DNA from: Acidimicrobiia bacterium
GTDB taxonomy: Bacteria > Actinomycetota > Acidimicrobiia > Spongiisociales > Spongiisociaceae
Direction of reading: 5' to 3'
Assembly: GCA_965231815.1 (NCBI GenBank)
Contig: OZ246890.1
Coordinates: forward strand, 1,799,469-1,863,468
DNA length: 64,000 nucleotides
The notes under the pieces are model-generated. The model searched no databases. It was not told the DNA's origin and worked only from the letters and a program-made list of their open reading frames with translations. Both the position numbers and the translations under genes were made by a program. Below are positions 42,527 through 42,979 of this stretch, one piece after another. Numbering within the stretch: position 1 is the first letter of the stretch; each line of letters opens with the position of its first letter.

Positions 42527-42979
42527 ATGGACTTGAAGGGCAAGAGCGTGGTGGCGATCGGTGAGCGGGAGGGGGTCAACGGACCCAGCCTCAAGCTGCT
42601 GGCCGAATCCGCCGGCGCCGATGTGGTGTTCAGCGTTACCCAGTGCTTCGTCTGAACGGCGGGGGGCGCCATGGACCTGGAGGATCAGGCGAACGTCAAC
42701 CGCCTGGCCGAGACCTCCGTCGGTGACGAGATGGTCGTGTTGCTCGGGCAACCGGACGCCAACAGCGCCGGTCTCTTCGCAGAGACGGTAACGAGTGGCG
42801 ATCCGACCTGGGCTGGTCCTTTGGCCGGAGTCCCGTTGGGACTTCCTGTTTATCACATACTGGAGCCGGAGATCAAAGAACAGATCGATGAAGAACTCTA
42901 TGACGAGCACGTTGGCCTGATGGAGTTGTCGGCCGATGTGGATGAGATAATCCACTGGGTGGCGATCTGCAGAGATTGA
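42527..42979 (+). CDS. grdA: Glycine reductase complex selenoprotein A, in-frame UGA (Sec) at 42653-42655
   Basis: SD AAAGGAG 8 nt upstream of the ATG; MDLKGKSVVAIGEREGVNGPS ... VVFSVTQCFV-U-TAGGAMDLEDQ ... [25 protein letters not shown]. Confidence 0.85.

Follow-up and report, generated by a model that had tools for sequence, protein, structure and literature searches.

Selenium-dependent Grd chemistry is classically a property of strict anaerobes, e.g., Clostridia and Treponema. As the work of the Andreesen group reportedly has it, a substrate-specific protein B cleaves the C–N bond of the substrate and passes a carboxymethyl group to the selenocysteine (Sec) of the small selenoprotein GrdA, from which component C yields an acetyl thioester, while thiols re-reduce GrdA. 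The canonical locus, exemplified by that of Sedimentibacter (L021; numbers with an L denote the loci of other genomes compared here), runs grdE-grdB-trxB-trxA-grdA-grdC-grdD. Betaine reductase has GrdH/GrdI together with GrdA, GrdC and GrdD, and sarcosine reductase has GrdF/GrdG. Here, we describe a Grd-type locus in a 64-kb stretch of the genome of an Acidimicrobiia bacterium (contig OZ246890.1, positions 1,799,469 to 1,863,468; hereafter the window). Its central frame is, with high confidence, grdA, coding for the small selenoprotein A of a Grd-type enzyme system with Sec at an in-frame UGA (Table 1). The GrdA protein itself is textbook, i.e., an ordinary and routine member of its family in a newly sampled lineage, and the novelty lies in its context, a module joined to a beta-keto acid cleavage enzyme (BKACE) and devoid of a linked GrdD. 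This set of BKACE, E-like, B-like, GrdC, GrdA and Amidohydro_2 genes is an undescribed variant of the Grd gene set, widespread in sponge-symbiont and marine bacteria.

A GrdA frame that crosses an in-frame UGA

The grdA frame begins with 42 sense codons, the last residues being ...VTQCFV, meets the TGA, and continues as TAGGAMDLEDQ... for 107 further codons up to its terminal stop. The redox motif is C40-F-V-U43, i.e., a C-x-x-U encoded with an in-frame UGA, and the junction peptide spanning residue 43 reads TQCFV-U-TAGGAMDLEDQANVNR. When the joined frame was searched with C as the placeholder for Sec, it matched Pfam PF04723 with 195.4 bits (gathering threshold 22; E=5e-58; model positions 1–144 of 147) and the NCBIfam equivalog NF040748 with 197.4 bits (cutoff 130; positions 1–147 of 151), the match being full-length and spanning both sides of the TGA. 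A TGA occupies the Sec codon in 87/87 GrdA copies, namely the window copy and 86 copies in 85 loci of other genomes from at least six phyla, drawn from species-representative genomes and assemblies; neither Cys nor any other sense codon was found at residue 43 among these copies or the database matches inspected, and Zhang et al. 2006 likewise record GrdA as lacking known Cys homologues (PMC1794560).

A preliminary description made from the letters alone had already read this frame as GrdA with a selenocysteine-type UGA in the C-F-V-U motif and a GrdA pattern on either side of the stop. Its coordinates, translation, strong Shine-Dalgarno sequence AAAGGAG and TGA position were all exact on re-reading, and its reading is upheld by the two model matches above curated cutoffs, the universal TGA, the continuation of coding-type evolution beyond that codon and the further Sec gene of the cluster.

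The window protein is like the GrdA of Peptoclostridium/Eubacterium acidaminophilum, Clostridium sticklandii and Treponema denticola in its full-length match on both sides of Sec, and it shares with the Bacillota and Treponema proteins the C-x-x-U followed by T-A-G-G-A-M-D-L-E, the UGA-encoded Sec and the lack of a Cys variant, although its identity to them is only ~52–57%. As in characterised glycine reductase loci, grdA adjoins grdC and is accompanied by a Sec-containing B subunit. In contrast to these loci, grdC precedes grdA instead of following it in the order grdA-grdC-grdD, no thioredoxin or thioredoxin-reductase genes are adjacent, and the high-GC host, an actinobacterial symbiont of sponges that is probably aerobic or microaerophilic, is unlike the classic GrdA hosts.

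Table 1. Features of the Grd-type locus and their coordinates in the window
Feature	Position	Strand	Remarks
Shine-Dalgarno-like AAAGGAG of grdA	42512-42518	+	read from sequence; 8-nt spacer to ATG 42527-42529
grdA (selenoprotein A)	42527..42979	+	150 codons, Sec at codon 43, stop TGA 42977-42979
In-frame TGA, very probably read as selenocysteine	42653..42655	+	universal TGA in family; substitution pattern
Candidate apical hairpin of grdA, CCUGG-AGGA-UCAGG	42676..42689	+	5 bp, 4-nt purine loop, starts 21 nt after UGA
grdC, component C subunit beta	41064..42488	+	likely start ATG 41064, 474 aa; mechanical ORF starts TTG 40872
PaREP1-family small ORF between BKACE and grdC	40262..40621	-	Pfam PF05942; TAG 40514-40516 at Trp36 codon
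BKACE family gene	39176..40165	-	first gene of minus-strand operon; Pfam PF05853, 276 bits
GrdE-like (component B alpha-type) subunit	37783..39117	-	444 aa; Pfam PF09338, 321 bits
GrdB-like selenoprotein B gene	36456..37775	-	439 codons, TGA 36735-36737, motif GST-U-GTGTRSGSTL
Hairpin of GrdB-like gene, GCGUAG-CGGGU-CUACGC	36723..36707	-	begins 14 nt after UGA
Two tandem Amidohydro_2 genes	34599-35510 and 35515-36435	+	Pfam PF04909; convergent with GrdB-like gene

A second selenoprotein gene and a divergent component B

The GrdB-like gene, lying 5 kb from grdA and absent from the preliminary description, as was the non-canonical composition of the locus, is the second selenoprotein gene here. 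Its frame reads ...VIVGST-TGA-GTGTRSG... and extends 92 codons past a TGA at the canonical Sec site; when B homologues were aligned, all of them (13/13) had a single in-frame stop at the same column, which was TGA in the 12/12 checked as DNA. With 425 bits against the TIGR01918 'various_sel_PB' subfamily model (cutoff 65), the protein is a member of the selenoprotein B superfamily. It stays below the cutoffs of the models for glycine GrdB (TIGR01917; 404.7 bits, cutoff 602.2), sarcosine GrdF (427 bits, cutoff 800) and betaine GrdH (369.8 bits, cutoff 775). The control proteins on these specificity models scored 731 (L021 GrdB), 812 (L031 GrdH) and 751 bits (L060). Whereas glycine- and betaine-type B proteins share the sequence U-GTCTRCG, the window protein has U-GTGTRSG and has lost both Cys of U-x-x-C-x-x-C, and in a neighbour-joining tree the BKACE-linked B proteins with U-GTGTRSG form a clade of their own.

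Since NCBIfam has no GrdE or GrdI models, the typing of alpha subunits went via their partner B subunits; on the only alpha-type model available, that of GrdG, the GrdE-like protein scored 229 bits, below the cutoff of 780. In it, Asn stands where the pyruvoyl-forming Cys would align (CGW-N-AIAC versus SGN-C-VSAC of glycine-type GrdE); this Cys is reportedly Cys242 of Bednarski et al. 2001, the numbering having been checked on the Sedimentibacter protein. The Asn is kept in the GrdE-like subfamily down to the tier of ~55% identity, and the betaine-type alpha partners show Phe at this column.

Among the named systems, betaine reductase is alike in that its Sec B subunit is partnered by one of alpha type devoid of the pyruvoyl-forming Cys, and the neighbourhoods of the window's relatives likewise point to quaternary amines, with choline-sulfatase, carnitine-dehydrogenase-type, Rieske and GcvT demethylase-type genes. 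However, the B-like subunit reaches 370 bits against the GrdH cutoff of 775, both Cys after its Sec are replaced, no GrdD is linked, and BKACE and amidohydrolase genes are part of the module but not of canonical betaine reductase operons. The sarcosine reductase subunits provide the best-scoring specific models for both window proteins, but these attain only about half and ~30% of the respective cutoffs, and the window has Asn at the proprotein cleavage Cys column. The fluoroacetate reductase FarE-type Grd-like system of Synergistota would be comparable as another Grd scaffold with a non-glycine substrate, and FarE is a secondary match of the E-like protein with 138 bits, but with a cutoff of 675 this falls far short, and its genes lie in an unrelated context.

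A conserved module joined to BKACE

The BKACE gene lies directly upstream of the E-like and B-like genes, a position conserved in L001–L003 and L089–L093. Like the BKACE-dependent carnitine/lysine pathways (Kce; dehydrocarnitine cleavage enzymes), the operon is headed by a BKACE gene, and the modules of relatives are accompanied by 3-hydroxyacyl-CoA/carnitine-dehydrogenase-type genes; unlike the enzymes of those pathways, the window protein falls below every NCBIfam BKACE equivalog cutoff, its nearest solved relative being Kce (2y7d, 158 bits). Homologues of the E-like protein form a subfamily of more than 35 clusters at 79–93% identity, with a further tier at 49–66% that includes a Tara Oceans protein. 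The order BKACE, E-like, B-like is kept from 93% down to 57% identity, in sponge metagenome-assembled genomes (MAGs) and Tara plankton contigs alike. In L089–L091, which are marine contigs including a Tara Oceans scaffold, a 3HCDH-type dehydrogenase, an ABC transporter, a GcvT-like gene, two Amidohydro_2 genes, BKACE, E-like, B-like, GrdC, GrdA, Rieske/VanA-type oxygenases and a sulfatase lie nearly all on one strand. L092 combines choline-sulfatase, Amidohydro_1, thioredoxin, GrdA, BKACE, E-like, B-like, GrdC and more amidohydrolases, the thioredoxin gene preceding grdA. L093 has 3HCDH, ABC, GcvT, two Amidohydro_2, BKACE, E-like and B-like genes, with grdC-grdA (L013) ~13 kb away on the same chromosome. 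The Amidohydro_2 pair adjoins either the BKACE-Grd module or grdC-grdA in L004–L009 and L089–L093. All B-like genes of the module have the TGA and U-GTGTRSGSTL, and the hairpin described below is present in all but L092, where the stem is not cleanly pairable. No literature was found on Spongiisocius, on BKACE linked with Grd systems or on Acidimicrobiia with glycine reductase.

In the window (32853–45189) and in L001–L003, the grd genes form an island that lysS and clpC border, the housekeeping block around it being otherwise conserved; the sibling L001, 97% identical and on a circular 4.14-Mb contig, is fully syntenic with the window from lysS to clpC. In the Candidatus (Ca.) Spongiisocius genomes (L004–L009), grdC-grdA occupies a different neighbourhood. 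The neighbourhood thus differs among Spongiisociales genomes, and the module has therefore moved within the order. In further Spongiisocius genomes, grdA is immediately followed by a choline-sulfatase-like gene. Several relatives have, next to grdA or the Grd module, a sulfatase whose C-terminal domain is of the choline-sulfatase type (L004–L006, 10409–11902; L092, 4808–6298), which hints at choline-O-sulfate and betaine metabolism.

The flanks of the grd loci were inspected over ~10 kb on either side. With the Sedimentibacter GrdD as tblastn probe, no match was found in the window, and GrdD was absent within that distance in every locus with the grdC-then-grdA order, in contrast to the 48 Bacillota-type loci, i.e., all such loci with GrdC and downstream sequence, in which it directly follows GrdC. 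Likewise, the Sedimentibacter TrxB and TrxA found no match in the window or in L001–L015, and the Pfam tables of L001–L008 and L089–L093 contained no PlsX-like protein. The grdC-grdA architecture was seen in L001–L016, L023, L028, L068, L073, L074, L078, L087 and L088; such loci without GrdD come from Acidimicrobiia (L001–L014), Anaerolineales, Dehalococcoidia, Ardenticatenaceae, Entotheonella and a deltaproteobacterium. The grdA-grdC-grdD architecture with trxB/trxA belongs to Bacillota, Treponema and Olsenella. In some of the grdC-grdA loci, the two genes are separated by a small thioredoxin gene. In the Bacillota loci L017 (8102, 10121) and L056 (797, 7227), two GrdA or two GrdB copies occur within 10 kb, each with its own TGA; these duplicates probably serve different substrate-specific B proteins. 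Of the hallmarks of the canonical glycine reductase complex, the window locus lacks an equivalog-level GrdB, the pyruvoyl Cys in GrdE, adjacent GrdC-GrdD and linked trxB/trxA.

These data bear on the strongest rival to an undescribed variant, namely that the window encodes an ordinary glycine, sarcosine or betaine reductase whose GrdD and thioredoxin are encoded elsewhere, whose B and E subunits are distant GrdF/G or GrdH/I orthologues, and beside which the BKACE and amidohydrolase genes are unrelated. That GrdA and GrdC pass generic equivalog models (for grdC, NF040746 with 591 bits, cutoff 450), that the B-like protein passes TIGR01918 with its best specific score on sarcosine GrdF, and that the inspection for GrdD extends over ~10 kb either side all agree with it; the B/E genes ~13 kb from grdC-grdA in L013/L093 show that the parts do disperse in this lineage. 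Nevertheless, the B-like and E-like scores are about half of the specificity cutoffs, which true GrdB and GrdH proteins used as controls attain or come close to, the two Cys kept in the glycine and betaine types are lost, the gene order is conserved over a wide range of divergence, and GrdD is missing beside GrdC in ~25 independent loci of several phyla against its presence in 48/48 Bacillota-type loci. We consider an ordinary reductase rather unlikely.

Host lineage and selenocysteine machinery

The window has a GC content of 61.3%, and the GC at third codon positions (GC3) of the grd genes (0.70–0.78) is that of their neighbours; with these genes conserved across the order, this rules out recent horizontal transfer from low-GC Firmicutes or anaerobes. 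The gene order ftsH, folP, panC, coaX, lysS, clpC, disA, cysS, rlmB is one that we take to be typical of Actinomycetota, judging from the known Mycobacterium gene order. The closest grdA genes among GTDB representatives, at 85–91% identity, are from MAGs of Ca. Spongiisocius sp., a Ca. Spongiisociaceae bacterium, an Acidimicrobiia bacterium and an Aplysina sponge bin, i.e., from Actinomycetota, Acidimicrobiia, Ca. Spongiisociales, which agrees with the Actinomycetota-like genome of the preliminary description. As cited in PMC11384910, Nguyen et al. 2023 named this order for symbionts of sponges.

The preliminary description had further called Grd selenoproteins unexpected in such a genome. This stands in a mild form only and was overstated: at least six species representatives of Acidimicrobiia and one Olsenella (Coriobacteriia) genome have GrdA, and genes for Sec insertion are reported from related bacteria. 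Slaby et al. 2017 report COGs of SelA and SelB for the majority of symbiont bins from Aplysina, with SelA = 2 and SelB = 1 in the sponge Acidimicrobiia bin76 (3.9 Mb, 61.6% GC; Table S4, PMC5649159), and a complete Sec machinery is described as universal in Actinomarinales, of the same class Acidimicrobiia (bioRxiv 10.64898/2026.04.03.716425). The use of selenocysteine in this lineage is thus only mildly unexpected.

Decoding of the UGA

TGA is an ordinary stop in the window, where it ends 33/56 long open reading frames (ORFs), and LeuB, IlvD and LysS match their family models up to the last residues before TGA; genome-wide reassignment of TGA is thereby ruled out, and the recoding at grdA is therefore site-specific. 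A scan of GC at the three codon positions (GC1/GC2/GC3) for TGAs with coding-like sequence on both sides gave two convincing sites only, 42653 and 36735; while this read-through scan is unspecific, the two Grd sites alone are coding-like on both sides within otherwise unassigned sequence.

After the UGA, both genes have a hairpin of the bacterial selenocysteine insertion sequence (bSECIS) type, a clear one in the GrdB-like gene and a candidate one in grdA. The GrdB-type family hairpin (61 sequences) has 6–7 bp and a GGN apical loop 14 nt past the UGA, with 89.8% of cells paired versus 20–72% in slid controls. Compensatory double changes occur at three of its pairs, in 14 cells, and 0/500 shuffles reach the observed score. 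The window stem is kept via compensatory A-U and G-C pairs that entail amino-acid changes (C to S, A to S); the folding energy of the single sequence after this UGA is no better than that of shuffles. For grdA, a bSECIS hairpin is plausible from the pattern of pairing: the window copy forms 5/5 pairs, and across 77 distinct sequences pairing holds in 86% of cells versus 13–62% in slid controls, with two pairs alternating between U-A and C-G in switches that track GC content and lineage. An alternative register (columns 22–25 with 31–34) was dropped as weaker, being 68% paired. Rfam at gathering thresholds gave only a tRNA-Thr in the window and no SECIS or riboswitch.

Sec decoding at grdA is here an inference, against which several points weigh. 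In its hairpin, the switches from U-A to C-G could reflect GC content or phylogeny instead of selection for pairing, the single-sequence folding energy of the region is no better than that of shuffles (z = -1.1), and RNAalifold yielded no workable family-wide consensus from either 15 or 80 GrdA sequences. In addition, no selA, selB, selD or tRNA-Sec was found in the window or in the 10-kb flanks of the Acidimicrobiia loci, and ARAGORN on the fetched loci found tRNA-Sec in those of Bacillota only. The same absences and the weakly supported hairpin are what one would cite for a read-through of the UGA with Trp, Cys, Gly or Arg by near-cognate or suppressor decoding, which would give a full-length GrdA devoid of selenium. 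Yet such decoding would be expected to leave TGG or TGY variants, and no sense codon appears among the 87 copies or inspected matches, nor is a GrdA with one known from the literature (PMC1794560); moreover, the GrdB-like gene has its UGA at the canonical Sec site with a covarying bSECIS-type hairpin, and SelA and SelB are reported in the matching sponge bin. Read-through with a standard amino acid is consequently very improbable.

That the TGA is instead a true stop, leaving a 42-aa peptide and a 102-aa protein from ATG 42671, or the latter alone, has a G-rich stretch ahead of that ATG in its favour and is what public gene calls show, exactly as a 42/102 split. The homologue search returned 1,876 proteins, of which the closest are 102-aa C-terminal fragments, one of them 100% identical, and a few 'full-length' database homologues have W at the Sec position from translation of TGA under a TGA=Trp code. 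The mechanical ORF list likewise holds the 3' part only (42671..42979, 102 aa), as the preliminary description had said. The substitution pattern by codon position in nine Acidimicrobiia grdA orthologues speaks otherwise. The 42 N-terminal codons have 7/7/28 variable columns at positions 1/2/3, with synonymous to non-synonymous changes at 90 : 27, so that the N-terminal piece is under in-frame purifying selection, and the C-terminal part has 25/12/76 with 219 : 98. In the stretch of five codons from the TGA to the following ATG, the columns are 0/0/5 and the changes 15 : 0. Outside grdA, 30/30 flanking columns are variable on each side. Since only third positions vary between the TGA and ATG 42671, this segment, which encodes part of the invariant T-A-G-G-A motif, is under strict protein-level selection in frame. 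By this pattern, translation runs straight through the grdA TGA; both products of a split gene would also miss the catalytic residue of GrdA, and a true stop has only a very slight chance of being correct. Finally, a pseudogene or assembly error, i.e., a nonsense mutation or sequencing error in a former Cys or Trp codon, could appeal to the genuine nonsense codon nearby, the TAG in the PaREP1-like ORF, but it is effectively refuted by the identical TGA in every independent assembly and lineage examined and by the purifying selection and coding-like GC by codon position on both sides.

Neighbouring genes

The grdC gene, a match to Pfam DUF5940, matches NF040746 from ORF residue 69; its start at ATG 41064 is backed by the 474-aa gene call in the sibling L001 and by a start-codon scan. 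A PDB sequence search found no solved structure related to GrdA, GrdC or the GrdB-like protein. The PaREP1-family ORF is 94% identical by tblastn to an intact ORF of L001 (7756–8115), which has TGG/Trp at the site of the TAG, and the window TAG is likely a nonsense mutation or the mark of a pseudogene; intact PaREP1-like ORFs recur beside grdC-grdA in L004–L008. On the 3' side of grdA lies a GC-rich 0.9-kb stretch (43343–43660, plus strand, and 42980–43340) with a 105-aa ORF of GC3 0.58 and no family match. A palindromic GC-rich segment directly follows the grdA stop, with no T-tract terminator detected, and a promoter and terminator scan yielded nothing above shuffled expectation.

Farther away, the window encodes a 1283-aa RecQ-family helicase (10251–14102, plus strand) with its helicase core from about residue 530 only, secondary DpdF matches and no family assignment for the N-terminal half. 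A 582-aa Schlafen AlbA_2/HATPase_c_4 protein (28514–30262, plus strand), possibly of defence type or regulatory, is inserted in the folate-pantothenate housekeeping block. At 54333–56452 (minus strand), a cytochrome P450 gene stands beside a protein with a weak match to an NADase-type glycan-binding domain; in L089 and L091, too, the Grd module has a P450 gene at its side.

A possible pathway

The TGA at 42653 is very probably decoded co-translationally as Sec, giving a 150-residue protein with Cys40-x-x-Sec43, presumably by means of the hairpin ~21 nt downstream and SelB and tRNA-Sec encoded elsewhere. By analogy with the described enzymes, the following course of reaction may be proposed. 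The divergent GrdE-like and Sec-containing GrdB-like pair would constitute the substrate-specific protein B, which may cleave the C–N bond of a glycine-type substrate and hand the carboxymethyl group to the GrdA selenol; GrdC would then process the Se-carboxymethyl intermediate into an acetyl thioester, and oxidised GrdA would be re-reduced by a thiol system. In the working model suggested by the gene neighbourhood, these steps would form the reductive branch of the catabolism of quaternary or methylated amines (carnitine- or choline-derived, betaine-like). A betaine-type substrate is proposed because the E-like protein lacks the pyruvoyl Cys, the neighbour genes are of carnitine, choline-sulfate and betaine types, and sponge Acidimicrobiia have been assigned to a carnitine-utilising guild (PMC5649159). 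BKACE might, speculatively, supply the substrate, e.g., a betaine-type unit from 3-dehydrocarnitine, and the acetyl unit may be released in thioester form, e.g., as acetyl-CoA and not as acetyl phosphate, by a route independent of GrdD.

Taken together, this would amount to an undescribed GrdD-independent selenoenzyme pathway, in which BKACE cleaves a beta-keto-amine and the Grd scaffold reductively deaminates the betaine-type unit to trimethylamine (or another amine) and an acetyl thioester, in sponge-symbiont Actinomycetota and free-living marine bacteria. We put it forward tentatively, as a proposal that is more apt to fail than to hold in this full form. It is countered by the model scores of the GrdB-like protein, with a small lead of sarcosine (427 bits) over betaine (370 bits), and by the absence of GrdD and thioredoxin genes holding for ~10 kb on either side, such that they may be encoded elsewhere. 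The model of substrate and pathway is speculative, drawing purely on the gene neighbourhood and one active-site column.

Biological implications

Grd-type selenium chemistry, classically linked to strict anaerobes, is here conserved throughout an order of Actinomycetota that live with sponges, and in plankton contigs of Tara Oceans. The case of grdA also illustrates how standard gene calling splits selenoprotein genes, with the public databases holding the 42-aa and 102-aa fragments or the W form. If the substrates are indeed osmolytes of the carnitine, choline or betaine type, which are abundant in sponges, the availability of selenium would be tied to the cycling of methylamines and osmolytes in marine holobionts. 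For the Grd enzyme family, the proposed pathway would mean a new substrate class and a new terminal step; for oxic or micro-oxic marine habitats, it would add a new way, dependent on selenium, in which osmolytes are turned over and methylamines produced.

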